Source of the DNA: Acidobacteriota bacterium
Lineage (GTDB): Bacteria > Acidobacteriota > UBA6911 > RPQK01 > JAJDTT01
Reading direction: 5' to 3'
DNA length: 64,000 nt
Assembly: GCA_965209055.1 (NCBI GenBank)
Contig: OZ242374.1
Location: forward strand, 3,648,001-3,712,000
Every line of letters starts with the position of its first letter. Position 1 is the first letter of the stretch. The notes under the pieces were generated by a model. The model made no database searches. It saw only the letters and a list, made by a program, of their open reading frames with translations, and was not told the origin of the DNA. Shown piece after piece: positions 3,746 through 63,228 of the stretch. Position numbers and translations under genes: made by a program.

Positions 3746-3801
3746 ACCCCAGACTCATGGGCTGGATGGAGTCCCGTCCGGTCCATGATCATAAAGTGAC
3801 G

Positions 3802-3840: not shown

Positions 3841-3921
3841 CATTTGAGATTCAGCCTCTTTACCGGTTTCCCGGGGGTATGAGGAACAAGGAGTCCTCGC
3901 CGGTCGGCGGCGAGAGGGCGG

Positions 3922-4847: not shown

Positions 4848-4917
4848 GCGCGTTTACTCCTGTGAGCGTGTGGATCGAAACGCCATGGAATCGGCTGGAC
4901 GCGTTCCGTGAAGAGGG

Positions 4918-6561: not shown

Positions 6562-6671
6562 GGATGAACCCGCCGTCTCGGAGAGGAGGCCGGAGTCCCG
6601 TTTCGAGGGCCGGAATCCGGGTCGATCCCGCCGCCGACGGACTCTCGAAGCCCCATACTATACCACTCCAA

Positions 6672-6845
6672 AACCGAGACGGGAGCGGGCTCGACGGCTG
6701 TCCGGAGCAGGCACCGTTCCTCGACTTGGAGCCGGCGGATTGGCTCCAATGAGCGGTGGAGGAGCACCGAATTGGACGTGCCGGGCCCGACTCGAAATCG
6801 GGGTGTTGTCCGATGATGAGCCGTCCACGCGGGCTTGTACTCGAA
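6672..6845 (+). pseudogene. Decayed duplicate of the tRNA-Ser(CGA) leader, promoter and 5' three-quarters
   Basis: Aligns with 11384-11545 with many substitutions; keeps the anticodon arm CCCGACTCGAAATCGGG but lacks a TTCGAATC T-loop and the 3' acceptor strand. Confidence 0.85.
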
Positions 6846-7038
6846 ACAACAGTTCCGAGTCGTCCTTCTGGCTGAATACCTCGCCAAAACATCTGATTAG
6901 AAAAAAATCTGGTTTATCATCGATAAGTCACGATATAGTCACTAAATCGGCCTTTTTGGGACTTGAAGTTGGCACCGATTTTGCTTGGTATTTCAAGGTT
7001 TCGTACGATCCTCCCAAACTGAGTACTGGTGACCCGAG

Positions 7039-9864: not shown

Positions 9865-9873
9865 GAGGGTGAA

Positions 9874-11172
9874 GTGAAACGGCGGACCTTTGTCAGAAGT
9901 CTGTTGGCCCCGGCGGTCGGTGCAGTGTCGGGATTCCATCTGCCGCTGGCGAACGCTGCCAACTACGACGGCAAGCTGTTCATCTTCGTTCAGGCGGAAG
10001 GAGGTTGGGACCCGACAAGTTTCTGCGATCCGAAGATGAATACGCCCGGCGAGAAGGTCATCAACCACTGGGCCGAGAACGGAGAGACTCGGCAGGCGGG
10101 CAATCTCTTCTACGCGGATTTTGCGAACAACGCGCCATTCTTCGAGAAATACTACGACCGGATGCTGGTCATCAACGGGGTTGACGCGCAGACGAATTCA
10201 CACACGGTGGGGGTCGCCCATAACTGGAGTGGCCGGGTCGCGGAAGGCTACCCCAGTATGACTGCATTGCTGGCGGCCCATCACGGACCGGAGTTGCCGC
10301 TTGCCTATCTCAGATTCGGGGGTTTCTCGTACACGGCCGGTCTGACCACCTTCACACTCATGAAAGAACCGGAACTGATTCGAAATATCGCGACCCCGAA
10401 TCTCAATCGGTGGGGTTCGACCCCGTATCTCCGCATGGCAGACTGGGAAAGGTTCCAGAGATTTCGGGCAGAGAATATCGCTCGGCTGAACGAGCCGTCC
10501 CAGCTTTTGCCCAGAGCAGCCCGCAACCGCGAGCTTTATGCAAAGGCGCTGTCGTCGGACTCGACCGATGGACTGAAACATTTTGCTTCCCTCATTCCAC
10601 CGGAGGATGAATTGGATCAACTGGAAGGGTTTCAAGGCCCGTTCAACAGCATCCCCAACCAGTTGCGGCGTCAAGCGCTGTTTACGATCCTTGCGTTCAA
10701 GGCGAAGGTTGCCGTGAGTGCCGATCTGCTCCTGCAAGGTTTCGACACGCACTTCGATCACGACGTGGAGCACACCGAGCGGTTGGGAATGTTGACGGAT
10801 TCCGTGGATTTTCTGTGGGATTTCGCCGAGAAGCATGAAGTCGCCGACCGGCTGGTCGTGGTGATGGGATCGGATTTCGGCCGCACCAACCACTACAACG
10901 TGGATGACGGGAAGGATCACTGGCCCATCGGCAGCTTCATCGTGATGGAAAAGAATCAGACCTGGACCAACCAGGTGATCGGCGAAACCGACGCCCTGCA
11001 CTTCGCGCACAAGATCCACCCGGCCACACTGCAGCGCGACGACGCCAACGGGACCATCATCCACCCGAAGCATATTCACAAGGCGTTGCGCCGGTACTTT
11101 GGAATCGAAGACTCACTGGGAGCCCAGGCATACCCCTTCCGCAACACCGAGGATTTCGCGTTCTTCGAATAG
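9874..11172 (+). CDS. DUF1501 family Tat-exported protein
   Basis: Tat signal MKRRTFVR; GGWDP, GFDTH, SDFGRT, GKDHW motifs. Confidence 0.85.
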   Translation: MKRRTFVRSLLAPAVGAVSGFHLPLANAANYDGKLFIFVQAEGGWDPTSFCDPKMNTPGEKVINHWAENGETRQAGNLFYADFANNAPFFEKYYDRMLVINGVDAQTNSHTVGVAHNWSGRVAEGYPSMTALLAAHHGPELPLAYLRFGGFSYTAGLTTFTLMKEPELIRNIATPNLNRWGSTPYLRMADWERFQRFRAENIARLNEPSQLLPRAARNRELYAKALSSDSTDGLKHFASLIPPEDELDQLEGFQGPFNSIPNQLRRQALFTILAFKAKVAVSADLLLQGFDTHFDHDVEHTERLGMLTDSVDFLWDFAEKHEVADRLVVVMGSDFGRTNHYNVDDGKDHWPIGSFIVMEKNQTWTNQVIGETDALHFAHKIHPATLQRDDANGTIIHPKHIHKALRRYFGIEDSLGAQAYPFRNTEDFAFFE

Positions 11173-11180
11173 GTCACTCA

Positions 11181-11385
11181 CCCGCATTTCCCGCCAAGGG
11201 GCGTGACGAGCGCGCGTCCGGCGCAGTCGGTTCTGGAGAAACCTCGGACAACAAGAACCAGACCTAGCGCGACGTGACCCGGACCTGAGCCCCGATCTTC
11301 AGCGCCAATCCCAGGAGGGAATCGGTCCCTTCCTCTTCGCACCATGCCGTCAGCTCATCGTTGCAGAATCCACTGTCCTCCCGAA
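11181..11385 (-). mobile_element. IS1380-family remnant
   Basis: - strand peptide VREDSGFCNDELTAWCEEEGTDSLLGLA resembles the IS1380 transposase R.DSGF...WCE..G.D...GLA segment; CCCGCATTTC at 11181 resembles an IS1380 terminus. Confidence 0.55.
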
Positions 11386-11432
11386 CCGTGACGGTAGCGG
11401 TCACGAGGCCTGCCCGGAGCGGGCCCCGTTCC

Positions 11433-11462
11433 TTGACTTGGAACCGGCGGATTGGCTCTAAT
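11433..11462 (+). promoter_or_regulatory. Sigma70-like promoter of tRNA-Ser(CGA)
   Basis: TTGACT-N18-TCTAAT ending 7 nt before the tRNA. Confidence 0.55.
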
Positions 11463-11469
11463 GAGCGGT

Positions 11470-11565
11470 GGAGGAGTACCGAAGTGGACGTACCGGGCCC
11501 GACTCGAAATCGGGTTGTCCGGTGATGAGCCGGGCACGTGGGTTCGAATCCCACCTCCTCCGCCA
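11470..11565 (+). tRNA. tRNA-Ser (anticodon CGA)
   Basis: Acceptor GGAGGAG/CTCCTCC-G-CCA, anticodon arm CCCGA-CTCGAAA-TCGGG, long variable arm, GGTTCGAATCC. Confidence 0.96.
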
Positions 11566-11693
11566 AGCTCTTTTCGTCCTTGCTTTCGCGAACGCACATC
11601 GAAGACACTTCCGGCGTAACCATCGCATTTCCCGCTGAGAAATAAGGGCCGGGGGCGTTTCCGGTTCTACGGAAGGCCGGACCCGTAGAGGCC

Positions 11694-12410
11694 ATGCTTT
11701 CCAGGTACGACAAATTCGCCGCCGTCTACAACGGGCACTGGGGCGAGGACTCCCTTGGCTGGTTCCCGCAACTGGAACGTCTTGTGTTGAGAAAGCTCGA
11801 TCCCGGCAGCTTCATCCTCGATGCCTGCTGCGGCACCGGCCAGTTCGCCCGGAAGCTGAGCGCAAGGGGCTTTCGGGTGGTTGGCGTCGACGCCTCTTTC
11901 GAAATGCTCCGCCATGCGGCCGTGAATGCTCCCGGTTGTGGGTTCTTCTGCGCGGATGTCCGATCATTTTGTCTGAGTCGCAAGTTTGCTGCCGCCTTCT
12001 CGCTCTACGATAGCCTCAATCATCTGCTGACGTTGGACGACCTGGAGTCGGCGCTCGCCGGCGTCTCAAGTTGCCTCGCTCCAAGAGGCGTATTTGCCTT
12101 CGATCTCAATACGGAAGTTCAATACCGGTCCACTTGGTCGGGCACTTGGACCATCTCCGATCCGAGTTCGACCACGGTGGCATCGACTTCCTATTGCGAG
12201 GACACTCGGCTAGCGGAATTCCGGGCGACGATATCGTCTCCGAATCGGATCCACGCCGAAGTTGTTCATCTGGTACAGACCTGGTATCCCGTTTCCACGG
12301 TTGTCCAGGCGCTCGAACGAAGCGGCTTCAGGGATGTCTCCTGTAGATCCCTTGACCGTAATCGAGGGATCGCAGAGGCGCGCCGCGTGCTCTTCGTCGC
12401 CGGGAAGTGA
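11694..12410 (+). CDS. Class I SAM-dependent methyltransferase
   Basis: ILDACCGTG motif I, GVDAS.EML, DSLNHL. Confidence 0.88.
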   Translation: MLSRYDKFAAVYNGHWGEDSLGWFPQLERLVLRKLDPGSFILDACCGTGQFARKLSARGFRVVGVDASFEMLRHAAVNAPGCGFFCADVRSFCLSRKFAAAFSLYDSLNHLLTLDDLESALAGVSSCLAPRGVFAFDLNTEVQYRSTWSGTWTISDPSSTTVASTSYCEDTRLAEFRATISSPNRIHAEVVHLVQTWYPVSTVVQALERSGFRDVSCRSLDRNRGIAEARRVLFVAGK

Positions 12411-12597
12411 TTTATCGGCGGGACGGTGTCTGTTCGGTAGATACAGTGAGGCGCGCACCTTGACGGCAGCCTTCGGCCGCGTTGACAATGGACAAAGATT
12501 CTACGCGACTGATTCCATTCGGCGGTGTGGAAGCCATTCAGTTCGGGTATCTTCCGACGCCGCCGTCACCATGTTCGCTCCGGGAGGACGAGAACTC

Positions 12598-49778: not shown

Positions 49779-50738
49779 ATGGCTCAGAAGAGATTCCTGA
49801 TTACAGCCCCGGTGGAAGAGATCGTGATCGAGTTGCTGGAGGCCCATGCGCCGACGGTGACGTCGCCCGCCACCGACCAGAAGACGTTGTCAGGCCTGCT
49901 CTCGGGATCGATCGGGATCGTCGCCCGGGGCGAGGCCCGGATCACCCCCGAGCTGGTGGAGGCCGCGCCCGATCTCCAAGTCGTGGGCAGGACCGGCGTC
50001 GGGTACGACAACGTGGACGTGCCGGCTCTGACCCGCCGGTCGATTCCCCTGATCATCGCCCCGGTGGGTGGGTTCTCCGTGGCCGAAGGGGCGCTGGGGA
50101 TGCTGCTCTGCCTGATCAAGAACATGCGCGCCATGGACTCGGCGGTCCGCGAAGGCAACTGGGACATCCGCTACGACGGCCTGGTCGGGGACGTGGCCGG
50201 CCATACGGTGGGCATCGCCGGGATGGGCCGGATCGGTTCCTACCTGGCCAGGCTGCTTCAGCCCTTCGAAGTGACGGTCCTGGGCTACGATCCTTACGTG
50301 GACGCCGGTCGAATGGCCGAGATCGGGGTCCGCAAGGTTGAGTTGAAGGAACTGCTGGCCCGGTCCGACTATGTCTCCTTTCACATGCTTCTGAATGACG
50401 AGACCCGGGGCATGATCGACCGGGACGCGGTCGCCGGCATGAAGCGGGGGGCGGTTCTGCTGAACCTGGCCCGCGGCGGAATCACCGACGGCCTCGATAC
50501 CCTGGCCGACGCCCTGGACGATGGGCAACTGAGCTACGTGGGACTGGACGTTTTTCCCACCGAACCTCCCGATGTCTCCCACCGGATCTTCAAACATCCC
50601 CGGTGCCTCTTCGCGCCCCACTCCCTGGGCATGAGCGAACTGGCCATGGACCGGGTCGGCCGTTCCATGGCCAACGACATGCTGGCCGTGTTGGAGGGGA
50701 ATCGACCCCAGCACTGCGTCAATCCTGAAGTCTTCTAG
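49779..50738 (+). CDS. D-isomer-specific 2-hydroxyacid (phosphoglycerate-like) dehydrogenase
   Basis: RTGVGYDNVD, GIAGMGRIG, LNLARG, LDVFPTEP, APH. Confidence 0.9.
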   Translation: MAQKRFLITAPVEEIVIELLEAHAPTVTSPATDQKTLSGLLSGSIGIVARGEARITPELVEAAPDLQVVGRTGVGYDNVDVPALTRRSIPLIIAPVGGFSVAEGALGMLLCLIKNMRAMDSAVREGNWDIRYDGLVGDVAGHTVGIAGMGRIGSYLARLLQPFEVTVLGYDPYVDAGRMAEIGVRKVELKELLARSDYVSFHMLLNDETRGMIDRDAVAGMKRGAVLLNLARGGITDGLDTLADALDDGQLSYVGLDVFPTEPPDVSHRIFKHPRCLFAPHSLGMSELAMDRVGRSMANDMLAVLEGNRPQHCVNPEVF

Positions 50739-50863
50739 GAGTGGGGGTTTTCCTATCCCGATAGCCCCACAGTCAACAACTACCAAACATTAACGTTTTC
50801 AATGGATTACCGGGTTCTTCGCCGAATCGGTAGCGTGGTTGACTCCCTATGTTTGACATCCTG

Positions 50864-50882
50864 AACAGGCAACAAACAGGCA
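50864..50882 (+). promoter_or_regulatory. Putative integrase arm-type binding sites, left end
   Basis: AACAGGCAACAAACAGGCA, identical to 63052-63070. Confidence 0.7.
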
Positions 50883-50980
50883 GCAGTATTCGAGCCTGCG
50901 ATGCCGGTCTGGTACTATTTCCTCTGCGATATAGGCCCGCCGTCACCAGATCCGCTGTGACGAAGGTCGGGCAGTCGGAC

Positions 50981-52036
50981 TCAGTTTTTTGGCCCTTCCA
51001 CGTTCGTGCGATTCGCCGAGACGGCGCGTACGTACTCAAGCACTTCTGGTCGAATCTCGTCCCACTCTTCCAGGGTCTTGAAGGAGAGAGCATAGCCACC
51101 GTGTGTCCATTCTTCGAGATTGACGGAACCACTGAGCCTGGCAAATGCACCGTCACCGCCCCATGTAATCGCCTGCGGCAATACGCTGACGCTGCACACT
51201 TCCGTTCCCAGATATCCGGCTTGCACGCCAAAGTAGGTTCTCGTGACGTTGGAATCCCCAGGCTCGCTGAGCACAAATCCGACGCTCGTGCTCCCTACCT
51301 GCTCCCAAACGCCCTGCTCTGGCAGATGTCGGCGAAGGTCGGCATGGACTCGGTCAAAGAGTTCCTTGTATCCATTGTCAACCAGGTATTTTTCCAGAGC
51401 CCGACGCTTTTCGGCGGTGGTTGCGGAAGGACGCTTTCGGATGATTTCTGTTCGTCCTGACTCCACCTCCAGTTGTCGAGCTAGGAGTCGCTCCCCTTCA
51501 CGTTGAAACCCGTGGAATGTCACCACGGAAATATCCACTGGCCCAGCAGAAATGAATCGTGCCATCCGTTCGGCTACAGCGTCCACACCCAATCCGACGA
51601 GTACCATGCGGGGCGGCAGGAGGCGTGACAGGTCGTCCCCGCCGAAGTTGTCGGCGTACCATTGCTCGAAGTCATCGATCTGTTCGATACCGTCGTTCCC
51701 GCTACGTTCGGAAATGTGCTTCGCGAGGTCGCCGGTACTCATGGCGTCCAAGTCCGAAGCGTAGTCCAAGACTTGGGTCACAGCCTCGCGGGCAAGCATC
51801 CCTCGCTTCAACTCGTAGACGACCAGACGGCCGTCCGCGTCAACGGCGAGCAGATCCAGCCAACCGGTTTGGGTGGGCGTCTGTCGTCCCACGAGACGGA
51901 GGCCCGGTTCGAGCATTTCCGGGTTGCGAACCAAAAGCTCCTCCAAGCCCAACTCGGTTTGCATCTGCTTGAGCGGTGACAGGGGCGCCACCGTCCCCGA
52001 CCCGTCGACCGCCCAGATACACAGTTCCTCAGTCAT
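50981..52036 (-). CDS. Endonuclease NucS-domain (PD-(D/E)xK) protein
   Basis: LEELL..NPEML..GL.LVGRQ...GWLDLLAVD.DG.LVVYELKRG...AVTQVLDYA. Confidence 0.8.
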   Translation of the reverse strand: MTEELCIWAVDGSGTVAPLSPLKQMQTELGLEELLVRNPEMLEPGLRLVGRQTPTQTGWLDLLAVDADGRLVVYELKRGMLAREAVTQVLDYASDLDAMSTGDLAKHISERSGNDGIEQIDDFEQWYADNFGGDDLSRLLPPRMVLVGLGVDAVAERMARFISAGPVDISVVTFHGFQREGERLLARQLEVESGRTEIIRKRPSATTAEKRRALEKYLVDNGYKELFDRVHADLRRHLPEQGVWEQVGSTSVGFVLSEPGDSNVTRTYFGVQAGYLGTEVCSVSVLPQAITWGGDGAFARLSGSVNLEEWTHGGYALSFKTLEEWDEIRPEVLEYVRAVSANRTNVEGPKN

Positions 52037-52440
52037 TTCTGCGTCCGATATCTCAATCGGCTCATCAAGCTACACGATTGTCGCCGTCCGATTCAAACGC
52101 GCCGTTCCAACGGGGGATACGGCCCTGCTCAACCCCTACGGAGGGGTGACGGCAGCACTGAAGCGGGCGGTCGAGTTGCAACCAGCGGCGGAAAGTCGCT
52201 CCTTCCAGGTCGTGATTGACGGTGAACGCACTCGGCAATCGCAAGGGCCTTTGGAGGCTCGTTTCGGCTGTGCCTCAAGGGGGTCTCGCGCCCGATCCGG
52301 GATGTGAATGGGACAAGGGGGGTGGATTCACAAAAAGCGGTCCCGGTGATTCACAAACGCGCTGTCCCCGATCTTTTTTCCTTTCAGTCAGTTACGGCCC
52401 CATTTCTGGCCACCGGGTGGCCGCACGGGGAAAATGGAGG

Positions 52441-52541
52441 TGGACGGGAGCGACCCCCCCTTTTTCCTGCCCGGTGCGGGCGCGGGGGTGTTGCGCAATT
52501 CACATTTGCGCAGCACCCCCTGGGGGGGTCGCTCCCGTCCA
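52441..52541. other. Nested inverted-repeat structure (candidate origin or structured RNA)
   Basis: Perfect 20-bp IR TGGACGGGAGCGACCCCCCC / GGGGGGGTCGCTCCCGTCCA enclosing two further hairpins. Confidence 0.6.
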
Positions 52542-53145
52542 AATTATCCCTGGCGGGAAGGCAGTAAGATGATCCCATGAAGCCATGAAGTGGCGTTATG
52601 CAGGTATCATTCCGGCGGATTAGGCGGACATTGTCTGGCGAGCCGAATACGATCCCATATTCCGGCCTGGAGACCATCCGGTGCTGGACCTGATCGCCGT
52701 TCACGATCGTGCCGGGTATACGGTGACCCGGATTTGGCACTCTATGGCTCCCGATATCGCCGTCCTGCTCGGTGGGCAAAATTGCTTGTCCGTCTGACGC
52801 GTCTATGTCCAAATGAACCGCAGGTCGATAGATCGAAGGATCCTGCTTACGTGGCCGACCCGGTTCCGTTAGATCGTCGTCGGCGAAGCGCACCATCCGG
52901 CGAAGCCGTAGGAAGTCTCTCAACTCTCTTGGTTTTTCATTCCCGAGTGGTGCCTCTATACTGAATGCTGATCTTTCAGGACTGGGGGTTCTGGCAAGAC
53001 ATCGTGCATCGGAGTACGATCCGCTCGCATAGCCGGATGTGTTTGTCAAAAAGGAGTTGCAGACCAACCGAGGCAGCCTGCACACTTCTGCACCGCACTC
53101 CGCATCCCGGTCAGCGCCTCAGAAAACCATTGCCCGCATATCCAC

Positions 53146-55431
53146 ATGGCCATCACAGTCTTTAACGACAGCTCGTACAGCCTGTCTGCCTTGGTCGAGG
53201 CGATCGGTAGGGGCGAGATTGCTCTGCCCGACATCCAGCGACCCTTCCGCTGGAAGGCGACCAAGGTCCGAGACCTCTTCGACTCGATGTACCGTGGCTT
53301 CCCCGTTGGCCACCTGATCTTCTGGGCAACCGGTGCCGAGATGGGTGCCCGCCGAATCGGCACGCATGCCCACGAGGCCGCGCCGCGCCTCATGATCGTG
53401 GATGGCCAGCAGCGGCTCACCAGCCTCTACGCCGTGCTCACGGGGAGCGAAGTGCTCCGTGAGGATTACACTGCTTCGCGGATTCGTATCGCGTTTCGCC
53501 CCCGAGACGGCAGCTTCGAGGTAGCCGATGCCGCAGTGGTAAGGAACCCGGAGTTCATCGCCGACATCTCGATTCTATGGGCTGGCGGCAGTTTGCTAAA
53601 GAAGGTGCGGGAGTTCCTCATGCGCCTGGAAGAAAGCAAGGGTGATCTTGGCGAGGACCGGCGCGTCCGCATTGAATCGGCCATTGAAAGACTCTACAAC
53701 CTCCGAAACTATCCTTTTAAGGCCATGGAGGTGGCTTCAACGGCAGGTGAGGAACAGGTCGCGGACATCTTCGTGCGCATCAATAGCAAGGGGGATAGAC
53801 TCGGCCAAGCCGACTTCATTCTCACACTGATGTCCGTCTGGTGGGAGGAGGGCCGCAAGCAACTGGAGAAATTCGCCCGGAACGCTAGGCTCCGGCCTCC
53901 TGGGCCGTCTCCCGCAAATCCGTTCATCGACCCGTCCGCGGACCAGATGCTACGCGTGGTTTCGGGACTTGCCCTCCGGCGCGCCCGCCTTCGATACGTC
54001 TATCAGGTGCTTCGGGGCAAAGACCTTGAGACCGGCGAGATTTCGGCTCAGATCCGGGAGAAGCAGTTCGCCACATTGCGGGAGGCTCAGGCGGAGACCC
54101 TTTCGCTGACTAATTGGCACGAGTTTCTTAAGGCAGTCCGTCGGGCCGGCTACCGAAGCCGAGCCATGATCAGTTCGGAGAACAATCTGATGTTCTCCTA
54201 CCTGATGTACCTGATTGGCCATCGAGACTACCGGATCAACCGCAGGACCCTTCGCGAAGCCATCGCTCAATGGTTCTTCATGACCTCACTTACTGGCCGA
54301 TACACGGGCAACTTCGAGAGCCGAGTTGAGCAGGATCTCCGCCGTGTCGCCGAGGCGAGGTCCGGTGATGAGTTTGTGGCAATGCTGAACGGGATCATCG
54401 ACACGACGCTCACCATGGACTATTGGACGATCCAACTCCCCAGTTCGCTTGAGACTTCCTCAGCCTTCGGTCCGACGGTGTTCGGATACCACGCAAGCCT
54501 TGTTCTCCTCAATGCGCAGCCGCTGTTTTCCCCGCTGCAATTGAGTGAGCTTTTGGATCCATCGACGCACGCTCCTCGCTCGGCCGTCGAGCGTCACCAT
54601 CTTTTTCCCAAAGCGTACCTGACACGGATTGGCATCGATCGCACAGTACAGCGAAATCAGATCGCCAACTACGCCTTCGTCGAATGGCCCGACAACGCGG
54701 AGATCGGCGACTCACGGCCAAGTGAGTATTTCCCTCCCCTCTTCGCCAAGCTTACGGCGCGGCAGCGAGAACGAGCACGGTTCTGGCATGCGCTGCCGGA
54801 GGGTTGGGAACAGATGGATTATCGGGAGTTCCTTCAGCAACGGCGGGTGCTCATCGCTGATGTCGTGCGAGCGGCATTCAACAGGCTCCGGACCGGCGAG
54901 CCTCCCGAGGAGGAGGAACCGCTGCCGCTGCCGCCTGGTGGCCACGCATGGTCCATTGACGATCTCCTCGCCGAAATGGAAACCGAGCGGGTCGAGTTCA
55001 AGTCGTCTGCCTACTACAGCTACAAGCCGAACGTACCGGAGAGAGTAATCACGGAGTCCGTGCTCAAGACCATCGCGGGCTTCCTGAACGCCGGAGGTGG
55101 CATTCTCGCGGTCGGCATTGCGGATGACGGCGAGATCCTCGGCATCCAACCGGACCTGGACATGAAGAACATGGACGGGGACCGGTATGTGAACTCACTC
55201 ACAAACCTGATCGAGCGCTCGCTCGGACCACTTGCTTCCACGATGGCGAAGATTCAGTTGCAGGCTGTCGATGGCGTGCAAGTCGCCATGGTACACGTGA
55301 CCCCATCTCCTGAGCCGATCTATGCCAAGGTCTCCAAACGTGACCGGGCCTTCTTCGTTCGGGTGAACAACTCGACCCGGATCCTTGAAGGGGCCGATCT
55401 TGTCGGATATGTCAGACAACGCTGGGCCTAG
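53146..55431 (+). CDS. GmrSD-like (DUF262 + HNH-like) protein fused to a C-terminal Schlafen AlbA_2 domain
   Basis: PDIQRPFRW, DGQQRLT, FVRIN (DUF262); ERHHLFPK...NQIANY (HNH-like); ETERVEFKSS...AGFLNAGGG.L.VG..DDG (AlbA_2). Confidence 0.85.
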   Translation: MAITVFNDSSYSLSALVEAIGRGEIALPDIQRPFRWKATKVRDLFDSMYRGFPVGHLIFWATGAEMGARRIGTHAHEAAPRLMIVDGQQRLTSLYAVLTGSEVLREDYTASRIRIAFRPRDGSFEVADAAVVRNPEFIADISILWAGGSLLKKVREFLMRLEESKGDLGEDRRVRIESAIERLYNLRNYPFKAMEVASTAGEEQVADIFVRINSKGDRLGQADFILTLMSVWWEEGRKQLEKFARNARLRPPGPSPANPFIDPSADQMLRVVSGLALRRARLRYVYQVLRGKDLETGEISAQIREKQFATLREAQAETLSLTNWHEFLKAVRRAGYRSRAMISSENNLMFSYLMYLIGHRDYRINRRTLREAIAQWFFMTSLTGRYTGNFESRVEQDLRRVAEARSGDEFVAMLNGIIDTTLTMDYWTIQLPSSLETSSAFGPTVFGYHASLVLLNAQPLFSPLQLSELLDPSTHAPRSAVERHHLFPKAYLTRIGIDRTVQRNQIANYAFVEWPDNAEIGDSRPSEYFPPLFAKLTARQRERARFWHALPEGWEQMDYREFLQQRRVLIADVVRAAFNRLRTGEPPEEEEPLPLPPGGHAWSIDDLLAEMETERVEFKSSAYYSYKPNVPERVITESVLKTIAGFLNAGGGILAVGIADDGEILGIQPDLDMKNMDGDRYVNSLTNLIERSLGPLASTMAKIQLQAVDGVQVAMVHVTPSPEPIYAKVSKRDRAFFVRVNNSTRILEGADLVGYVRQRWA

Positions 55432-55439
55432 GCACTTAG

Positions 55440-56628
55440 GGAAGGTCTGAACAAGTCGATTCAAGGGACGTGAGAGCCGTTATTGTTTCGGCTTTGCGGT
55501 GTCCAAACCTTCATTATGAGGAGTACCACCCTGGCAAGGCTCTGGGTGCCCCCATTCTCAGACTGATTCCCCGAATCTCGACGCACCTCTCCCGCGCCCG
55601 GATCAGGCGTTCACGCCAGAGCGCTCGGCGATCATCAGATTGGCGAACCCCACCAGCAAATAGATCCGTTGGGTGTTTTTCGCCAGCCCCCGGTAGCGCA
55701 CCTTCGCGTAGCCGAAATGCCGTTTCAGGTACCCGAATACATGTTCTGCCTTGGCCCGAACCGACGCTTTGCGCCGCTCGGCCAACGCCGCCTCACTCTC
55801 CGGTGGCAGCCGCCAACGCTTCCCCGGCTTCATCATCACCTGCCAATCCACCGGCCGATCTCGATTCTCCGACCGCTTTCCCACTCCCTGGTATCCCGAA
55901 TCCCCCCAAACTTGAGACTCCGAGCCGTGCAGCAACTCACCGGCTCGCGTCACGTCATGCTCGTTAGCCGGCGCCGTCACCACCGTGTGCGCCACCCCCG
56001 TCTGGGCGTCCACCCCCAGGTGGGCCTTCATTCCGAAATACCACTGTTTTCCCTTCTTCGTCTGATGCATCTCCGGGTCCCGCGCCCCCTCCCTGTTCTT
56101 GGTCGAGGAAGGCGCCGCCAGGATACTCGCGTCCACGATCGTCCCCCGGCTCAGCCGCAGGCCTTGCCGCTGCAGGTGAGAACCGATCTCCTCGAACAGC
56201 GCCTCCCCCAGACCATGCTCCTCCAGCCGATGACGGAATTTCAGAATCGTCGTCTCGTCCGGCAGCGGCCCCGTGAGCTTCAGGCCCACGAACCGCCGCA
56301 CCGACTCCACCTCATAGAGCAGATCCTCCATCCCCGGATCGCTCAGGTTGTAAAACAGCTGCACGCAGTGGATCCGAAGCATCGTCGAGAGCGGGTAGGG
56401 ACGCCGTCCCCGTCCCGCTTTCGGGTAAACGGGCCGAATCCGGGCTTCCAACTGCTCCCATGGAATCAACCGGTCCATCCGGGCCAGAAATCTCTCCCGA
56501 CGGGTCACCCGCTTCTTGCCGTCGTATTCCAGATCTGCGAACGTTCGTTGCGACATCATCTATCCTCCATGCAGTGATGATGGAAGAATTATCGTGCAGA
56601 ACGCTGACTCGACTTAATCAGACCTTCC
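55440..56628 (-). mobile_element. IS5-family insertion sequence with 4-bp TSD TTAG
   Basis: IRs GGAAGGTCTGAACAAGTC / GACTTAATCAGACCTTCC; TTAG at 55436-55439 and 56629-56632. Confidence 0.94.
55603..56559 (-). CDS. IS5-family DDE transposase
   Basis: Highly similar to 19201..20169. Confidence 0.95.
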   Translation of the reverse strand: MMSQRTFADLEYDGKKRVTRRERFLARMDRLIPWEQLEARIRPVYPKAGRGRRPYPLSTMLRIHCVQLFYNLSDPGMEDLLYEVESVRRFVGLKLTGPLPDETTILKFRHRLEEHGLGEALFEEIGSHLQRQGLRLSRGTIVDASILAAPSSTKNREGARDPEMHQTKKGKQWYFGMKAHLGVDAQTGVAHTVVTAPANEHDVTRAGELLHGSESQVWGDSGYQGVGKRSENRDRPVDWQVMMKPGKRWRLPPESEAALAERRKASVRAKAEHVFGYLKRHFGYAKVRYRGLAKNTQRIYLLVGFANLMIAERSGVNA

Positions 56629-56632
56629 TTAG

Positions 56633-56980
56633 TCCCATCGAGTGCCAGACCGTGCATGCCCTAGAACTCATGGATCGCGACGCTGCTTGGTCCGGCCGGG
56701 ATTTACTTTCTTGGTTGCCGAAGACGCATGCCACAAGCAACAGGGGAAGATTTCCGTACGGGAAACGGTTGCCGCCACCCGCGATCACATAGTGCGTGAA
56801 TGGCCCATTGACCCGCTTGTACTCCTTCCGTCGGCGTGGGTTGGTGCGCGGTAGAGTAGACAGCGCCCGTAGCCGGGCCACCCAACCGAGGTCCAGTTCC
56901 GCCTTGCGGCCCGTGACCAAATGATCGATCTGGCGAGCGGAGGTCCAATGGCGGAAGGACTGCGGCGGTAGTAACTGCCA
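56633..56980 (-). pseudogene. Remnant of a plasmid replication protein (RepA_C-like)
   Basis: DLGWVARL.ALSTLPRTNP...Y.R.NGP...AGGGN.FPYGNLP.LL fits the RepA_C N-terminal pattern, then breaks down; limits approximate. Confidence 0.6.
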
Positions 56981-57210
56981 GGCGTTCCACCCGAACGCGG
57001 CCTTCATCTTCCCGTACTCGATCTTCTGCTTCTTGGAAGGGTTAATGTTGTCAGTTTCCCATGAGGGACTAGCACCCACAGCGGGGAGCGCTGAGCGCTT
57101 GGGAGTCCTCCCGTGGGACAACGGGACCGCAGCATGACGGGGACAAACATCTGGAGGCGTATACTTGCCTTCGCCTACGGGATTTCAGACGCTCTCAAGC
57201 AGCCTCTCTA

Positions 57211-58128
57211 CTAGTCTGAATGGTGCCCGCGCCAGACCAACTGCTTGTCGGTCGTCGCATCGATGCAATTTTTCAAACGTGGCGGCTTGTCTGGAGATGC
57301 AAACGCCCCATCAAGTTGCTTTTGGGTTAAGTTGGTCGCGGGAGGCCTACTACGGGGATCCGCTTCGTCGAGCTCGGCGAATCGGGTGCCAGACAGATTG
57401 GTCCCATCAAGATTGGCGTTCTCAAGGTTAGAGCCTGACAGGTCCGCGTCTACGAGAGACGCACCGGACAGGATCGCGTTAGATAGGTCGGTTTTCATGA
57501 GGAACGCCCCATCAAGGTTTATCTTTGCAAGAGATCCATAACGAAGGTGGACGCCGCGTAGGTCCAGTCTGAAATTGGCGTCCCGTTCAAGCTCGATACG
57601 TTTCTCTGAGCGTCTGCGGAGCAAGTCCATGACGGCCTGCACGTCTTCGCGCACCCATTGCCGATGATCATGTTCTTCCCCTCTTTCCGCAGCAATCTCT
57701 TTGGCAGCTTCCTCAGAGCCGCTAGCAAATTGAGCGTCATCCGTTAGGATGCCGCCGTTTGTCAGAGCAATGTTCTCAACGGATTTCCCGACCGGATGAC
57801 GAGCGAACGCGCAGAATAGGCGCATGACCTCGATGTGGTATTGCTCTGGGTGTTCCCCGGAGAGGCGTTCGAGAGCATACAAGCCGCCGAGCCGGACCGG
57901 GAGTTTCTCACTGCCCAGCATTTCCGAGCATTTCTGATAGCGCTCGTTCAAAAGCCCACGCTGCGCTGTTTCGGCTTGGCGTTCAGCTATCCTGCTGCGC
58001 CATATGGCAAGGGGCAGAGCAATTCCCGCTGCGATAACCAGACCCAAATTGCGGATGATCGTACTATAGGATTCCCAGTTACTCAGCGAATCCGTAAGCT
58101 CGTCGCACATGCTTCTTTCTGCCCCCAA
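57211..58128 (-). CDS. Membrane-anchored pentapeptide-repeat protein
   Basis: TM segment, then ERYQK..EMLGS...VRLGGLYALERL; A(D/N)LxG pentapeptide repeats. Confidence 0.85.
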   Translation of the reverse strand: MGAERSMCDELTDSLSNWESYSTIIRNLGLVIAAGIALPLAIWRSRIAERQAETAQRGLLNERYQKCSEMLGSEKLPVRLGGLYALERLSGEHPEQYHIEVMRLFCAFARHPVGKSVENIALTNGGILTDDAQFASGSEEAAKEIAAERGEEHDHRQWVREDVQAVMDLLRRRSEKRIELERDANFRLDLRGVHLRYGSLAKINLDGAFLMKTDLSNAILSGASLVDADLSGSNLENANLDGTNLSGTRFAELDEADPRSRPPATNLTQKQLDGAFASPDKPPRLKNCIDATTDKQLVWRGHHSD

Positions 58129-58148
58129 GCCAAGGATACAAAAGTGGC

Positions 58149-59777
58149 TCAGTCAGGCTTCATCGGCAGGTGATTCTGCTTCTTCGATGAAGTGGGTCTT
58201 ACTCGCTTTGCTCGCTTGAATGTCACGTCGGCGGCTTGGGGGTAATCCACGCTCATTCCGCCCAAGAGATCCTCAATCGTGAGTAGTTGAATGCGAGGGT
58301 GATTCCCCCATGGAGATTTGTAGAAACCTGCCGAGGCTGCTTCTCGACGCATCGGTGCGGTCGGAGGATTCAGGGACAGGAAGACTCCTATCTGGGCCTT
58401 CTCACGGTTCACAACACCCACGAGGTCACGGATCTGGGACACTGTGACGTGTCCGGCCTTCACCGAGAAGATGATCTGCTTCGTCTTCCCATTCCGGCCC
58501 TCGTCATGGAAATAGAGCCGACCATCAATACCCTGGTCGGCTCCTTTTTTCTGCTCAATGGGACGAGCACCGGCCAAGCCGAGAGCCCACCACTGAAACT
58601 GATAGGGGTCCTGCCCCGCTAGAGTGGCGGCATCTTGGAGACTGATCGGTTCACCGATGACGTCAAATCGACAGTTCTTGCCGAAGGAATCCTGGAGTCG
58701 ATGACGAATCAGAGAGATGGCTAGATGGGTGATGTCGATCCCGATCCAGCGTCTATCGAGTTTCTGAGCCGCCGCAATGGTCGTCCCGCAACCACAGAAG
58801 GGGTCGAGCACAATTTCGCCCTCGTCAGTACTCGAAAGAATAATTCGATCAAGCAACAATTGAGGCTTTTGCGTCGGGTAGCCCAGACGTTCGGCAGCGA
58901 GATTGTGCAATGGACGAATGTCCGTCCATACGTCTTGCAAGGGAACGCCTGGCGAGTCTTCCGGGTATTGCTTCAATCGAGGCATCCCGCCCTTCTTCTT
59001 TGGCCAGTGAACACGATCCTTTCGGTCAAGTTCATCTAGCGTAGACGGGGGTGATCTCCAATGCCGTCCCTTTGCCGTGACGTCAATCCCGCGCCATGGC
59101 AGACCTGTTTCGCCATATCGGATGCCTGCGCCGGTCATATCGGCCCGCTTCCACCGTCTGCCATCCGGGTCAGTCTGATCGAAGAATGTTTCTATGTAAT
59201 CAGTGTCGTATTCCTGAAAGACTCGATTCCACTTGTACTTGTTCGTTTTCCCATAGAATAAGATCACGTCATGCACAGGTCCGTATCGCTTCGCACTGCT
59301 GTGGGCGCTCGTGCGTTTCCACACAATTTCGCTCAAGAAACGTTCTGGTCCGAAGACGGCATCGAGCAAGAGTTTTAAAGAATGGCTCGCCGTTGGGTCG
59401 CAGTGCAGGTATAGACTCCCCGTCAGTTTCAGCACCCTTCGAAGTTCCAAGAGACGAGGTGCCATCATCGACAGGTAGGCCAACATGTCGTTGGTCCCCA
59501 TGAACTTCCTGAAGGCGATTAATGCCTCGGCTACTCTGCCGCCAGTTTCTACCGTCTCTTGATAGGCCCTGGCCGCAGTTTCGTCCCACTGCCACGTGTC
59601 CTCGAACGCCTTAATCTGGGAAGCCGACTGTGATCCGTCTTTCTCTTGAAACAGGACGTTGTAGGTCTGGTTGCTTTTGAAAGGAGGATCTAGGTAGACG
59701 AGGTCAACGCTTTTGTCCCGCAGGTAGCGCCGGAGAATATCCAAATTGTCGCCATAGTACAGAGTGTTGGATGCCAT
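58149..59777 (-). CDS. N6/N4 DNA methyltransferase (beta class) fused to an Mrr-like endonuclease domain
   Basis: YLDPPF, YPTQKP, LDPFCGCGT; C-terminal DQGIDG...SVKAG. Confidence 0.9.
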   Translation of the reverse strand: MASNTLYYGDNLDILRRYLRDKSVDLVYLDPPFKSNQTYNVLFQEKDGSQSASQIKAFEDTWQWDETAARAYQETVETGGRVAEALIAFRKFMGTNDMLAYLSMMAPRLLELRRVLKLTGSLYLHCDPTASHSLKLLLDAVFGPERFLSEIVWKRTSAHSSAKRYGPVHDVILFYGKTNKYKWNRVFQEYDTDYIETFFDQTDPDGRRWKRADMTGAGIRYGETGLPWRGIDVTAKGRHWRSPPSTLDELDRKDRVHWPKKKGGMPRLKQYPEDSPGVPLQDVWTDIRPLHNLAAERLGYPTQKPQLLLDRIILSSTDEGEIVLDPFCGCGTTIAAAQKLDRRWIGIDITHLAISLIRHRLQDSFGKNCRFDVIGEPISLQDAATLAGQDPYQFQWWALGLAGARPIEQKKGADQGIDGRLYFHDEGRNGKTKQIIFSVKAGHVTVSQIRDLVGVVNREKAQIGVFLSLNPPTAPMRREAASAGFYKSPWGNHPRIQLLTIEDLLGGMSVDYPQAADVTFKRAKRVRPTSSKKQNHLPMKPD

Positions 59778-59850
59778 AGTTCACCAGTATCCCATGAGGG
59801 GCAGACACCCAGAGAAGGAGGGATGAGAGTTCCGCTGCCGACTGAAGCCT

Positions 59851-60107
59851 ATGAACCGGCACGCGCCGGACACGCGGGAATCGGAGAAATTTAGGGATGA
59901 TTTCCGCGATAAGGCCATCGGCACGATTCGCAAATACGCCGATCTGAACATCATCAAAGCAAGAGTTGTACTCGATACCACTGGACGCCGCCGCCGCGGC
60001 TTTGCCTTGGAGGATTTGAACACCTACTCCGTTTCTCTGGAGCCGTGGTACGATTCGCCCCACGGCGAAGAACCCGGATCCAGAAAGGAGGAGATGCATG
60101 GGCATCT
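59851..60107 (+). CDS. Putative excisionase / MerR-like HTH protein (exon 1; stop TAA at 62021-62023 after splicing)
   Basis: GTIRKYADLNIIKAR...GRRRR.F.LEDL resembles winged-helix Xis; directly upstream of int; N-terminus uncertain. Confidence 0.5.
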
Positions 60108-63095
60108 GTGCGCCAGGCTAACTGGCACAAGACAAGCGGTGAAAGTCCGCTGAAACGAAGGACTAACCATCCACGTTTCTCCGCGAGCCGTGCGTTGGCA
60201 CCCGTGAGGGTGTCGGCGAAGCGTCGGCAGCGGCGCGTGTGGGCGGGGCTATTGAGCATCGAAACATGCAGGAACGGAAGTGCCGAGGCTGTGGATGCGG
60301 TCGAAGGCAACACCGGCTGGACCGGGAAGGTGAGGGACAGACGGACACCGCGGTGTCTAGGAACCCAAGCACGCACGTACGTCTTGTGTCGGGACCTGGG
60401 AGGGCTTCATTTCGCTCCGGTGGTCGAGCCAGGGCCGCATGAGAAAGGAGCAAACCGAACCTCATGATGGACGAAACGAAGCAGTCGGATTCATCCATAG
60501 TAGCGATGAAGCGGGCGAACAAAGAGGGGGAACCCTCGGCGGAGCCGGTGGAGCGAAGGGATGAAGCCAAGGGGAATTCGGTGTGCCAAAGCACGCGCCG
60601 GACGCAGAGTCGGGGGAGCGTGTCCCAAGCGGCGGACCGGATACGGCGAGCCATAGCGAGAAACCCCAAGGAGCGACTGACCGCGCTGTTGCACCATATC
60701 ACCGTGGAGGCCTTGCGCCGCGCCTACCTCGGACTGAGGAAGGATGCGGCCCCGGGAATCGACGGAGTGCGGTGGGAGGAGTACGGGGCGAAGCTGGAAG
60801 AGCGACTGCTGGACCTGCATCGCCGCGTGCACCGGGGCGCGTACCGGGCGCCTCCCGTCCGGCGGGTGAGAATCCCCAAGCCGGACGGACGGACACGACC
60901 GCTCGGGATCGCGGCACTGGAGGACAAGATCCTCCAGAAGGCCGTGGTGGACGAGCTCCTGACGCCGATCTATGAGGCGGAGTTTCTCGGGCTCAGCTAC
61001 GGGTTCCGGCCCGGACGGAAGGCGCATGACGCGCTGGATGCCCTGGCCTACGGGATCGAACGGCGGAAAGTCAATTGGATCGTGGACGCGGACATCCGAA
61101 CGTTTTTCGATGCGATCGACCGGGACTGGATGATCCGGTTCGTGGAACATCGGATCGGGGACCGGCGGGTGTTGCGGCTCCTGACCAAGTGGCTGAACGC
61201 GGGAGTGATGGAAGAAGGGACCCGGTCGGACACGGGGAAAGGGACGCCTCAGGGCTCCATCGTCTCCCCGGTGCTGGCAAATGTGTACCTGCACTACGTG
61301 CTGGACCAGTGGTTCCATCGGAAATGGCGTCCACGAGTCCCGAAAGGCGAGGCGATCCTGGTGCGGTATGCGGACGACTTCGTGGCCGGATTCGAGAAGC
61401 GGGCAGACGCGGAGCGGTTTCTCCGAGACCTGGGGGAACGGTGCGCCGAGTTCGGACTGGAACTGCACCCGGAAAAGACGCGACTGGTGGAGTTCGGGCG
61501 ATTTGCGGCAGCGGATCGGCGGCGACGCGGGGCGCGGAAACCGGAAACGTTCGATTTCCTGGGCTTCACGCACTACTGTGCGAAGACCCGGAAGGGGCGG
61601 TTCCGGCTGGGGCGGAAACCGAGTGCGAAGCGGATGCAACGAACCCTGAAACGGGTGGGGGAGAGGCTGCGAAGACGCCGGCACGACGACATCTGGGAGG
61701 TCGGGAAATGGTTGGGCCGCGTATTGAACGGCTGGCTCAACTACTTTGCGGTCCCCGGAAGTGGACGATGGCTGCAAGGCTTTCGATATCGGCTGCGAGA
61801 GCAGTGGATGCGGGTGTTGCGCCGCCGGTCGCAGCGAGCGCGCTTCACGTGGAGACGGCTCCGAAAGATGGCCAAGCTTCTCTGGCCGTCGGTGACGATT
61901 CGCCACCCGTGGCCGAGCGAACGGCTCACCGTAACGACCCAAGGCAGGAGCCGTGTGCCCTAACGGGCACGCACGGATCTGTGCGGGGGGCGGAGGGAAA
62001 CCGCCGTTCCTACCGCGACATAAGGTGAAGGATCGCCGGGGGAGACGACGGTACGTCGTCAGCAAGTACTGGCCGAACGGATCCGGTCGGCTCCGAATGT
62101 ACGCCCCCAACTACCGGAGCGCGCAAGCGCTTCAAACACGAATCGAGTCCAGTATCCTGGACGGCACCTGGAAGCGGCTCAAGCAGGAACTCGCCGGTGG
62201 GAAACGCAAGATCTGGACGGTCCGGAGTTTCTACGAGCGTTTTTTCGAGGAGTATTGCAAACCTCGTCTACGCTGCTTGCGCCGCTACGCACTCTCGTTC
62301 AAGAGCCTCAACGCCATGCTGGGGAACATTCCCCTGAAGGAGTTCCAGCGCAAGGACCTCCACCGCTACGTCGCGAAACGGAAGGGACAGGTCCAGCCAG
62401 CCACGGTGAACCGAGACATTGCGGCCCTCAGCAAGCTGTTTTCCTACGCGCTGGAGTGCGGGGAAGTGGACACGCATCCGCTGGTTCGATTCCCCAAACT
62501 GAAGGAGCCCAAGAAGGTCTTCCGGCCTTTGACGGTCCAACAGTTCCGCGACCTGGTCGAGGCGGTGGACAACCCTTCCCTGCAAGCCATGATCGCAGTG
62601 ATCGGTGAAACGGGGATTCGCAAGGGAGAGGGATTGTCGCTCACATGGAGTCGGGTGGATTTGGGCCGCCGGATGTTGTGGGTGGAGTTCACCAAGGACG
62701 ACGAACCGAGAGAGATTCCGCTCTCGAAGTACGCCGCCCGATATCTGGCGGGGCTGGTTCGTTACCTGAACACACCGTATGTGTTCGTCAACAGCCGGAC
62801 CGGGACAAGATGGGTGAATCCAGACAAGTCTCTACGTCGCGCTGCCGAGCGGGTGGGGTTGAAGGTTGGGTTTCACGATCTGAGGCGATTCCGCTGTAGC
62901 CATTGGCTGATGCAGGGTGTGGACGTGAGAACGGTGCAGAAGCTGATGGGACACTCATCGATCAGCACGACGATGCGCTACGCGGGCTACGTCAGTTCGC
63001 ATGCGCTCCAGAGCATTCGAGAGGCACAGGCTAACGAAGACTCACAAACGCAACAGGCAACAAACAGGCAACGGGTCGGAATGAAGGGACAATGA
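60098..63095 (+). CDS. int: Tyrosine recombinase/integrase split by the intron (exons 60098-60107 and 62020-63095)
   Basis: RBS AGGAGGAG; spliced ATG GGC ATC T|AT AAG gives MGIYKVKDRRG...; catalytic TGIRKGE, FHDLRR, MGHS, TMRY. Confidence 0.9.
60108..62019 (+). mobile_element. Group II intron (IEP without En domain, class E-like by inference)
   Basis: 5' GTGCG; domain V GAGCCGTGTGCCCTAACGGGCACGCACGGATC; domain VI ending in AC; EBS1 GGATGC and EBS2 CATGCA complementary to exon 1. Confidence 0.92.
60464..61963 (+). CDS. ltrA: Group II intron reverse transcriptase/maturase
   Basis: APGIDG, IPKPDGRTRPLGI, SYGFRP, GTPQG, VRYADD, FDFLGF, maturase X domain. Confidence 0.96.
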   Translation: MMDETKQSDSSIVAMKRANKEGEPSAEPVERRDEAKGNSVCQSTRRTQSRGSVSQAADRIRRAIARNPKERLTALLHHITVEALRRAYLGLRKDAAPGIDGVRWEEYGAKLEERLLDLHRRVHRGAYRAPPVRRVRIPKPDGRTRPLGIAALEDKILQKAVVDELLTPIYEAEFLGLSYGFRPGRKAHDALDALAYGIERRKVNWIVDADIRTFFDAIDRDWMIRFVEHRIGDRRVLRLLTKWLNAGVMEEGTRSDTGKGTPQGSIVSPVLANVYLHYVLDQWFHRKWRPRVPKGEAILVRYADDFVAGFEKRADAERFLRDLGERCAEFGLELHPEKTRLVEFGRFAAADRRRRGARKPETFDFLGFTHYCAKTRKGRFRLGRKPSAKRMQRTLKRVGERLRRRRHDDIWEVGKWLGRVLNGWLNYFAVPGSGRWLQGFRYRLREQWMRVLRRRSQRARFTWRRLRKMAKLLWPSVTIRHPWPSERLTVTTQGRSRVP

Positions 63096-63127
63096 ATGGA
63101 GGGGATATTTGGGATAACCGGTTGATA
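63052..63127. promoter_or_regulatory. Right-end arm-type sites plus IHF consensus site
   Basis: AACAGGCAACAAACAGGCAAC (63052-63072); TAACCGGTTGATA (63115-63127), whose reverse complement TATCAACCGGTTA matches WATCAANNNNTTR. Confidence 0.65.
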
Positions 63128-63228
63128 ATTAAGGATCTAGATCGTAGATCATTTGGACCGAGCGACGGATTTCCTACCCCCACTCCCCAGGGGATAGGAA
63201 AGTCCCCCCACTAATGTCCCCTCCTACC

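Follow-up and report, generated by a model that had tools for sequence, protein, structure and literature searches.

A lambda-type integrase that probably uses the loop of a REP-like palindrome as its attachment site: a 12.4-kb island and its paralogues in a sponge-associated Acidobacteriota genome

Tyrosine integrases are textbook single-site enzymes and, to our knowledge, the targeting of repetitive extragenic palindromes (REPs) is known for insertion sequences (ISs) only. The window studied here (64,000 nucleotides from a sponge-associated Acidobacteriota genome, labelled G000 in what follows) holds a 12.4-kb island (element positions 1-12428) with its own tyrosine integrase gene (int), lying between the two halves of a short palindrome, and this locus raises the question of whether such an enzyme can use a repeated hairpin as its chromosomal attachment site (attB) and, if so, where that habit came from. 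We consider it probable, at roughly 0.8, that a lambda-type tyrosine integrase mobilises the island as an integrative element, using the loop of a GGAG-headed REP-like palindrome as attB. The use of a REP palindrome as attB had been put forward in a first reading of the window (the original prediction), and it is now supported by the paralogues of the element, by a census of the repeat and by empty sites in relatives, from which we infer the recombination itself.

The heptamer TTTCCTA marks both island boundaries (attL copy of the 7-bp crossover core at 50749-50755, attR copy at 63170-63176, both on the forward strand), as predicted and as checked by eye and by script. When the outer flanks are joined, AGTGGGGGT (50740-50748, on the left) is the exact reverse complement of ACCCCCACT (63176-63184), which gives the perfect 9-bp stem that had been described, and the stem extends to 11 bp, around a 6-nt loop, with the GG before and the CC after it. 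The left half of the palindrome (GGAG head and 5' stem, GGAGTGGGGGT; 50738-50748, forward strand), for which relatives carry orthologous palindromes, and the right half (3' stem and CTCC; 63177-63186, forward strand) are both host DNA. On the left, the REP half overlaps the last base of the TAG stop codon (50736-50738) of a 2-hydroxyacid dehydrogenase open reading frame (ORF), and on the opposite side of the site lies a convergent ketopantoate-reductase-like gene. A second, inverted palindrome had also been claimed: there is indeed a degenerate inverted version of the first at 63190-63212 (reverse strand; stem GGGGA/TCCCC), although it is weaker than implied, with only a 5-bp stem and an 8-nt loop. 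A perfect inverted partner is present at the equivalent site (type a, as defined below) of the related genome G004 (L014). Judging from the rejoined flanks, the empty site is a REP doublet. Inside the ends, the identical 19-mer expected on both sides, AACAGGCAACAAACAGGCA, was located at 50864-50882 and 63052-63070, at distances of 108 and 99 bp from the core; the one on the right is within the int coding sequence.

This junction architecture was found again in 25 further elements. By tblastn, the genome contains 26 full-length integrase paralogues (86-100% identity), each paired with a conserved left end, in elements of 2.7-25 kb, several of which (2.7-2.8 kb) consist of int and little more. 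In all 26 the conserved gene is a tyrosine integrase, not a DDE/DEDD transposase, and all 26 integrase ORFs are free of internal stops (in the tree of the local copies, row b_5306137 carried a stop from fixed-length extraction, which the real copy lacks). Four types can be told apart by the repeat at their ends: type a (7-bp repeat, TTTCCTA or TTTCCAA; five copies, including the island under study), type b (11-bp repeat, GATTTCCAATC, or GATTTCTAATC in one copy; five copies), type c (15-bp repeat, GGGACTGTTAGTCCC; nine copies) and type d (the type-c target entered in reverse orientation; seven copies). Once the host flanks are joined, 21 of the 25 evaluable copies show a perfect stem of at least 7 bp, and a GGAG/CTCC head is present in 24 of the 25; element 6076050, the remaining one, runs off the contig end. 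(The single contig of G000 ends, at 6077123-6077182, within the right end of that element, and the contig start is no continuation of it; the assembly was apparently broken or linearised at the repeat.) The type-a sites, whose 7-bp repeat has no stem within it, allow the cleanest test, and here the five rebuilt stems measure 9, 9, 11, 16 and 5 bp, the attachment site of the element (attP) being much less palindromic than attB. A stem control combining the true left side with random right flanks was confounded and left unused, the c/d repeat being itself a 6-bp palindrome. Insertions occur in both orientations, with 7-15 bp duplicated and with unique flanks, and a sibling of the island, 100% identical over 10.5 kb at a different site, together with four pairs of identical integrases, indicates recent movement. 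Four left ends (arm and core) have no paired integrase (G000 416798, 474840, 484463 and 4708529), two of them facing each other 9.6 kb apart; these may be remnants or integrase-less derivatives.

The sites also exist without the element. All seven genomes of the same genus that align over the whole left-flank gene are without the island, and in the six whose gene tail could be located (L006 is unmatched) GGAG-headed palindromes follow the stop codon in every case, with the orthologous right flank within ~100-170 nt in five of the six. The type of palindrome at the orthologous site varies between genomes, as expected of mobile REPs, and in G004 the stem is that of the island target, in an almost identical palindrome which is unoccupied, inverted and has a loop 1 nt shorter. 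In the public metagenome data (four runs, all contigs), one contig (X4 record 24) holds both flanks ~165 nt apart, free of the island, and contigs of X15 and X2 (the latter from a different study) carry the left junction. The expectation that empty sites would show palindromes in place of the island is thereby borne out, as is the expectation for integrase homologues, since such palindromes are likewise occupied by the 25 paralogues and by ten copies in three other genomes.

As for the repeat itself, a census of G000 counted 468 perfect hairpins with a GGAG or CTCC head, which fall into few classes (the head and a TCC, TCCT, TTCC or GTT loop being common and the stem differing). Perfect hairpins as a whole are only modestly over-represented (2294, where a third-order Markov simulation of 2 Mb predicts ~1386), and the signal is concentrated in the GGAG-headed classes. 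One 22-mer of the family has 48, 45, 36, 23 and 4 copies in G000, G003, G004, G005 and G001 (all of the same genus), its reversed control having none in any genome, and the same five genomes have 28, 1, 10, 2 and 0 int matches; because the 22-mer is abundant where int is scarce, the repeats are independent of the elements. The target repeats are extragenic at the loci read, and form inverted doublets at the island locus and in relatives. The claim that the palindrome is multicopy thus holds for the GGAG-headed family and fails for the exact type-a palindrome, which has no other genomic copy at up to one mismatch and one at 2-3 mismatches; a single-copy reading based on that near-exact count gave way to the census of the family. 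The repeats have GGAG as their conserved head, often in the form TAGGAG, and since the part of PMC8266576 available to us gives GTAG as the head 5' of the palindrome in the studied REPtrons, we call these repeats REP-like, with a variant head. GGAG-headed palindromes also lie on both sides of a 252-aa ORF (L033 806-1564, reverse strand, equal to G000 1142805-1143563) with the NHVHVL and YIRENP motifs (HUH and tyrosine), resembling a REP-associated tyrosine transposase (RAYT): it matches PF01797 (Y1_Tnp) at 29.7 bits, above the cut-off of 23, and NF047646, the NCBIfam model for RAYTs, with E 1e-21 at 77.4 bits for a cut-off of 80. Element 1144931 has its attR in the last REP of this cluster, and a second, weaker Y1_Tnp match is found at G000 3750831-3751106. 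Five "tRNAs" called by ARAGORN, at G000 3279847, 3354464, 4203100, 3841235 and 5203736, turn out to be REP arrays (three) or the structured module described further below (two, called tRNA-Val), and automatic annotation of these genomes probably contains such false tRNAs.

The integrase and the sequences inside the ends resemble those of lambda. The 361-aa protein matches PF00589 with E 1.9e-26 (93.3 bits, cut-off 27.1), and across 47 homologues R204, H289, R292, H315 and Y324 are invariant, K229 being conserved in at least 90%. A Pfam scan of the integrase returned no arm-domain match. In an AlphaFold2 model (pLDDT, the predicted local distance difference test, 88.7), strands at residues 2-7, 13-20 and 27-32 are followed by a helix at 35-51, and the PDB entry that matches best is that of full-length lambda Int (1z1b_A, E 5e-14, aligned over 349 columns to a chain of 349 residues). 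As modelled, the integrase is a heterobivalent lambda-type enzyme with a predicted N-terminal domain of the arm-binding type. An alignment of 25 element copies shows conservation of the outermost 140 bp at the left end and 175 bp at the right end. The left P' arm (50756-50890, forward strand, present in all 25 aligned copies) contains an IHF-like (integration host factor) site at 50797-50809 and the 19-mer, which is made of two AACAGGCA units 11 bp apart; on the right, the P-arm copy of the 19-mer (63052-63070, forward strand) lies in the int C-terminal coding region, followed by the IHF-consensus match TATCAACCGGTTA at 63115-63127 (reverse strand), inverted relative to the left one. Counted from the ends, the 19-mers occupy +109 to +127 and -118 to -100, and are found at both ends of all 26 elements with at most three mismatches, the left copy being conserved in spite of being non-coding. 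The IHF-like motifs lie at +42 to +54 and -55 to -43, mutually inverted about the core, and keep the consensus positions (TCAA...TTA) with variation at the N positions. With WATCAANNNNTTR as the IHF consensus, the only perfect match of the window is at 63115-63127 (reverse strand), and the site at 50797-50809 has one mismatch, both as predicted.

The insertion polymorphism, the anatomy of the junctions in 25 copies, the repeat family, the architecture of the integrase and the descent from tRNA targeting can be seen in the sequences. From them we infer the following recombination scheme, in which the chemistry, the exact cleavage points, the identity of the bending protein, excision and the rise in copy number are all reconstructed. 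The attP of the excised circle would have a 7-bp overlap between short inverted core sites, flanked on each side by an IHF-like bend site at ~42-55 bp and by an arm pair of AACAGGCA units at ~100-127 bp from the core. The N-terminal domain of the integrase would bind the arms, and its central and catalytic domains the core. In the chromosomal REP, the role of the inverted core sites would fall to the two stems and that of the overlap to the loop, so that integration would split the hairpin and duplicate 7 bp (7-15 bp in the sister types). The ancestors, it appears, crossed over in the anticodon loop of a tRNA-Arg gene and supplied the 5' half of the gene, and the resemblance of the REP stem-loop to an anticodon arm would have allowed the jump to a multicopy target, followed by a burst to 26 copies.

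Evidence for that ancestry comes from the right ends and from relatives. Within each right end, 30-40 bp resemble the 5' half of a host tRNA-Arg (25/31 to 33/38 identities), and in all eight elements tested tRNA-Arg was the best of nine tRNAs tried by pairwise alignment. In the island, the remnant (D-arm and 5' anticodon stem; 63143-63173, forward strand; 25/31 identical to the host tRNA-Arg(TCT)) ends in the core, which falls at the would-be anticodon loop position; other copies match at 29/31 to 33/38. ARAGORN finds no tRNA at either junction of the island, where the flanks are REP halves, and the likeness rests on pairwise alignment and on relatives. Among the latter, a complete tRNA-Arg in the same orientation lies 3' of int in L023 (integrase 90% identical, on a short contig of a metagenome-assembled genome, MAG), in G003 (85%) and in G010 and G035 (72%), in G035 twice. 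Homologues of 39-53% identity lie at tRNA-Arg or tRNA-Leu genes and have the opposite orientation, which is the classical one. Among 20 regions downstream of homologues, ARAGORN finds a tRNA in 15 and fragments were seen by eye in three more, the two others being REP junctions. In a FastTree phylogeny rooted on the 72% copies (read without support values, with two broken copies in and L023 out), the tRNA-targeting integrase of G003 is sister to all 36 REP-targeting copies. In G035, at 5131139-5133451, two integrase homologues 47% and 72% identical to that of the island stand back to back beside one tRNA-Arg(TCG), and may represent tandem or nested islands at one tRNA. It had been argued that homologues sitting consistently at tRNAs would overturn the REP proposal: distant homologues do sit there, and we read this as the REP habit being derived, since the right ends keep a tRNA remnant and the relatives lie at tRNA genes. 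REP targeting thus seems to be a recent retargeting from the tRNA-Arg anticodon loop to a look-alike hairpin loop. In the part of the Islander table available to us, anticodon-centred sites are common (2083 islands) and the 5'-fragment arrangement is a minority (159 islands against 3760 with a 3' fragment).

What part of the hairpin is recognised can be approached from the distribution of types. The tree of the 26 local copies has three groups, a, b and c+d, with c and d intermingled. One b-clade element (3142200), with a TTTCCAA core, occupies an a-type stem; the 7-nt loop is all that it has in common with this target, an indication that the overlap region is the hairpin loop. Perfect hairpins with the loop TTTCCTA number 120 and those with TTTCCAA 140 (reversed controls, 1 and 2), and all five type-a insertions are in a rare G(T/C)GGGGG stem. 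Types c and d occupy 16 sites, and ~12 exact 15-mer sites are free.

Several observations weigh against this account. None of the 120 other-stem hairpins with the TTTCCTA loop is occupied, and the exact type-a palindrome has no free copy (at up to one mismatch); stem sequence therefore matters, the set of targets usable by a type-a element may be small, and the "many harmless landing sites" of the original prediction are not borne out for this type. The rebuilt stems are just 5-6 bp long in four of the 25 copies. Among the joints listed there is no circle junction (right end to left end), which contigs could hardly show, and an excisionase gene was not identified, no systematic search having been made. 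The number of perfect IHF matches is unremarkable (1 against 0.54 expected, with at least one in 39/100 shuffles). The repeat head is GGAG and not the GTAG of the studied REPtrons, the RAYT-like ORF falls 2.6 bits below the NCBIfam cut-off, and Rfam models find no tRNA at the right ends of three elements (E up to 1). Finally, the tree was read with the restrictions given above, and the source genome is a MAG with an estimated contamination of 7.4%.

Alternatively, the same integrase and the same targets could be involved with a folded substrate, a single-stranded or extruded hairpin whose shape and loop sequence are read, as with IntI at attC or XerCD at CTX. The target is always a hairpin, with stems that vary and a loop that matches attP, the b-clade element in an a-type stem has the 7-nt loop alone in common with it, the ancestral target is an anticodon arm, and the integrase shows weak sub-threshold similarity to XerA and integron-integrase models. 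We nevertheless regard a folded substrate as improbable, because the architecture is that of a duplex lambda-type system (two-sided arms, bend-like sites, N-terminal domain, fold match to lambda Int), because the integron-integrase models score 61.3 bits for a cut-off of 265 and 28.1 bits for a cut-off of 435, and because type-a elements avoid the 120 hairpins that have the right loop in another stem; no cassette array lies beside int. In the boldest reading, which we would entertain only tentatively and consider unlikely, what the integrase recognises is the general shape of an anticodon arm (G+C-rich stem, 7-nt loop), loop identity with attP mainly sets the specificity, and the family retargets itself, recombination possibly taking place on extruded or single-stranded hairpins. 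Integration into a variant REP would then rewrite the core of the element through the heteroduplex overlap. If true, this would explain the four co-existing core types, the frequent orientation flips and the loop variants in sister genomes, and the integrase system would be reprogrammable by nature, able to carry cargo and provided with hundreds of safe landing sites in each genome.

Other explanations take the recombinase or the repeat out of the picture. The host RAYT might have spread the copies, or REPs or elements might have recombined with one another through their homology, with the integrase as a passenger or a relic: a RAYT-like gene does exist, one element adjoins its REP cluster, REPs offer dispersed homologies, and there are orphan left ends without int. 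This is highly improbable in our view, given that a single hairpin is split exactly at the attP-identical core, with a 7-15 bp duplication and in both orientations, that the flanks are unique, the 26 integrase ORFs intact and the arms conserved, and that a RAYT needs intact REP hairpins, which are destroyed at the element ends (RAYTs act on intact single-stranded REP hairpins according to the part of PMC8266576 available to us). Hardly credible, finally, is an ordinary single-site island, with a palindrome that is a terminator or the core sites of a unique attB and resembles the repeats by coincidence. It would fit the want of a second exact copy of the rebuilt type-a palindrome, the position directly 3' of a stop codon and between convergent genes, and the partly palindromic nature of all tyrosine-recombinase cores. 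Against it stand the same architecture in 25 further elements at other loci, the hundreds of GGAG-headed palindromes, also in relatives without the integrase, the different palindrome types at orthologous sites (as mobile REPs would show) and a type-a attP far less palindromic than attB.

The contents of the island differ from the surroundings in G+C (0.55-0.60 inside, ~0.65 outside). From left to right, the cargo comprises a 351-aa protein with a NucS_C-type endonuclease domain (50981-52036, reverse strand; PF01939, E 1.6e-09), a 761-aa protein combining GmrSD_N and Schlafen/AlbA_2 domains (53146-55431, forward strand; type IV restriction-like), a pentapeptide-repeat protein (57211-58128, reverse strand) and an N6/N4 DNA methylase fused to an Mrr_cat-type nuclease domain (58149-59777, reverse strand); judging by their predicted domains, the genes of this cargo (50981-59777) make up a compact set for defence. 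In other elements the cargo is different and reaches ~22 kb. A passenger IS with an IS5-type DDE transposase (55428-56632, reverse strand; ORF 55603-56559) is the sole DDE gene of the island and is missing from most elements. It has 99.8-100% identical copies within two other elements and very high contig depth in two metagenome runs, and for these reasons appears to have been recently active.

The int gene is interrupted, so that the spliced int of the original prediction proved right. Exon 1 (ATG GGC ATC T; 60098-60107, forward strand) has an AGGAGG ribosome-binding site upstream and is separated from exon 2 (62020-63095, forward strand) by a group II intron at 60108-62019 (forward strand), which starts with GTGCG, splits codon 4 and contains a reverse transcriptase/maturase ORF (60464-61963); the spliced product is the 361-aa integrase with the arm-binding-type N-terminal domain. 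The intron bounds follow from the sibling island (at 2.81 Mb in G000), which is 100% identical over element positions 1-9359 and 11272-12428, lacks exactly 1912 bp and encodes an intact 361-aa integrase starting MGIYKVKDRRG, and Rfam matches within the intron cover group II domains 1-4 and 5-6. Contig joints from 60107 to 62020/62022 were considered as traces of splicing and rejected, as they correspond to intron-less paralogues in DNA. The same intron is found at int codon 4 in three elements (also at G000 783102-784232 and 5305001-5306137), of core types a, d and b; this shared position in three core types is suggestive of homing to the beginning of the integrase gene, which would make the intron a parasite of a parasite.

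Between the first two cargo genes lies a conserved structured non-coding module (52128-52562, forward strand; no Rfam family). Modules of this kind (~330-440 bp) occur once per element, always on the int strand, and have no consistent reading frame; the 3' half folds as a three-way junction, with compensatory changes in 9/40 pairs and 93 G.U against 11 A.C cells. An Rfam scan of the module gave just sub-threshold matches to unrelated hairpin families. The module has 63 BLAST matches in G000, with ~30 partial copies outside elements, some arrayed at a spacing of 500-600 bp, and recurs in G001 (17 copies) and G023 (12 copies), two genomes with no int match. Its presence in int-free genomes shows the module to be an independent repeat, with an RNA, an origin or a transfer site as candidate roles.

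If our account is right, a family of integrases has exchanged a unique tRNA gene for a multicopy hairpin as its target and has then multiplied in the manner of an IS, with kilobases of defence genes still on board. The preserved intermediates (tRNA-Arg relatives, a decaying tRNA half and one element in the "wrong" stem) offer a stepwise view of how attachment-site specificity evolves and suggest a testable rule, in which the loop is the overlap and the stems are the core sites, that could serve in choosing or re-aiming integrases for multi-site insertion with low damage. REPs would also gain a role as landing pads of islands; Pseudomonas islands fall in REP-free regions according to the part of PMC3390384 available to us, and islands need not do so. 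A full-text literature search returned no description of a tyrosine integrase targeting REPs; one paper taken up as a precedent (PMC2647930) was rejected, "Rep" there meaning replication protein.

How, then, does the system compare with those already known? With the lambda-type integrases of tRNA anticodon loops it shares the enzyme family, the three-domain layout, two-sided arms, bend-like motifs and a 7-bp overlap between inverted stems, and its close relatives lie at tRNA-Arg, the element supplying the 5' half. Sublocation classes for integration sites in tRNA genes were reportedly set out by Williams in 2002, the "A" sites of Islander being said to be those in the anticodon. Unlike in tRNA islands, attB is the loop of a multicopy extragenic palindrome and not a gene, the genome holds 26 copies in contrast to the usual one per site, four core types co-exist, and the tRNA half of attP is a decaying remnant, no tRNA being restored at the island. 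REP-targeting ISs include IS1397 and ISKpn1 (IS3 family) and IS621 with other IS110-family elements. They have in common with our elements a harmless multicopy extragenic target and many copies per genome, and the smallest elements here (2.7 kb) are likewise mostly recombinase, whereas the enzyme is a tyrosine integrase and not a DDE/DEDD transposase, there is no bridge RNA, attP has arms, the cargo reaches 25 kb, and recombination would be conservative and site-specific.

The bacteriophage-like element phiRv1, which integrates into the REP13E12 repeat of Mycobacterium tuberculosis, also combines a site-specific recombinase with a repeated chromosomal attB and several alternative sites; there, in contrast, the enzyme is a serine integrase and the repeat is kilobase-sized, not a hairpin and of low copy number. 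CTX-phage recombination by XerCD takes place at a folded hairpin, and, as in the present case, a tyrosine recombinase acts on a site able to form a stem-loop, with variation of the stem tolerated. The same likeness holds for IntI at attC, as far as the accessible part of PMC8266576 describes it. Both IntI and Xer differ from the integrase studied here, which has an arm-binding domain and attP arms and falls far below the thresholds of integron-integrase models. The target, for its part, resembles the REPs of REPtrons in being short, G+C-rich, extragenic, often arranged in inverted doublets, headed by a 5' tetranucleotide, present in hundreds of copies and flanking a Y1 HUH gene; it departs from them in its GGAG head, in a RAYT-like protein just below the NCBIfam cut-off and in that the REPs are the landing pad and not the mobile part. 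Set beside all these systems, the enzyme and its attP are ordinary, and what is out of the ordinary is the class of attB, the number of copies and a switch of target that can still be traced.

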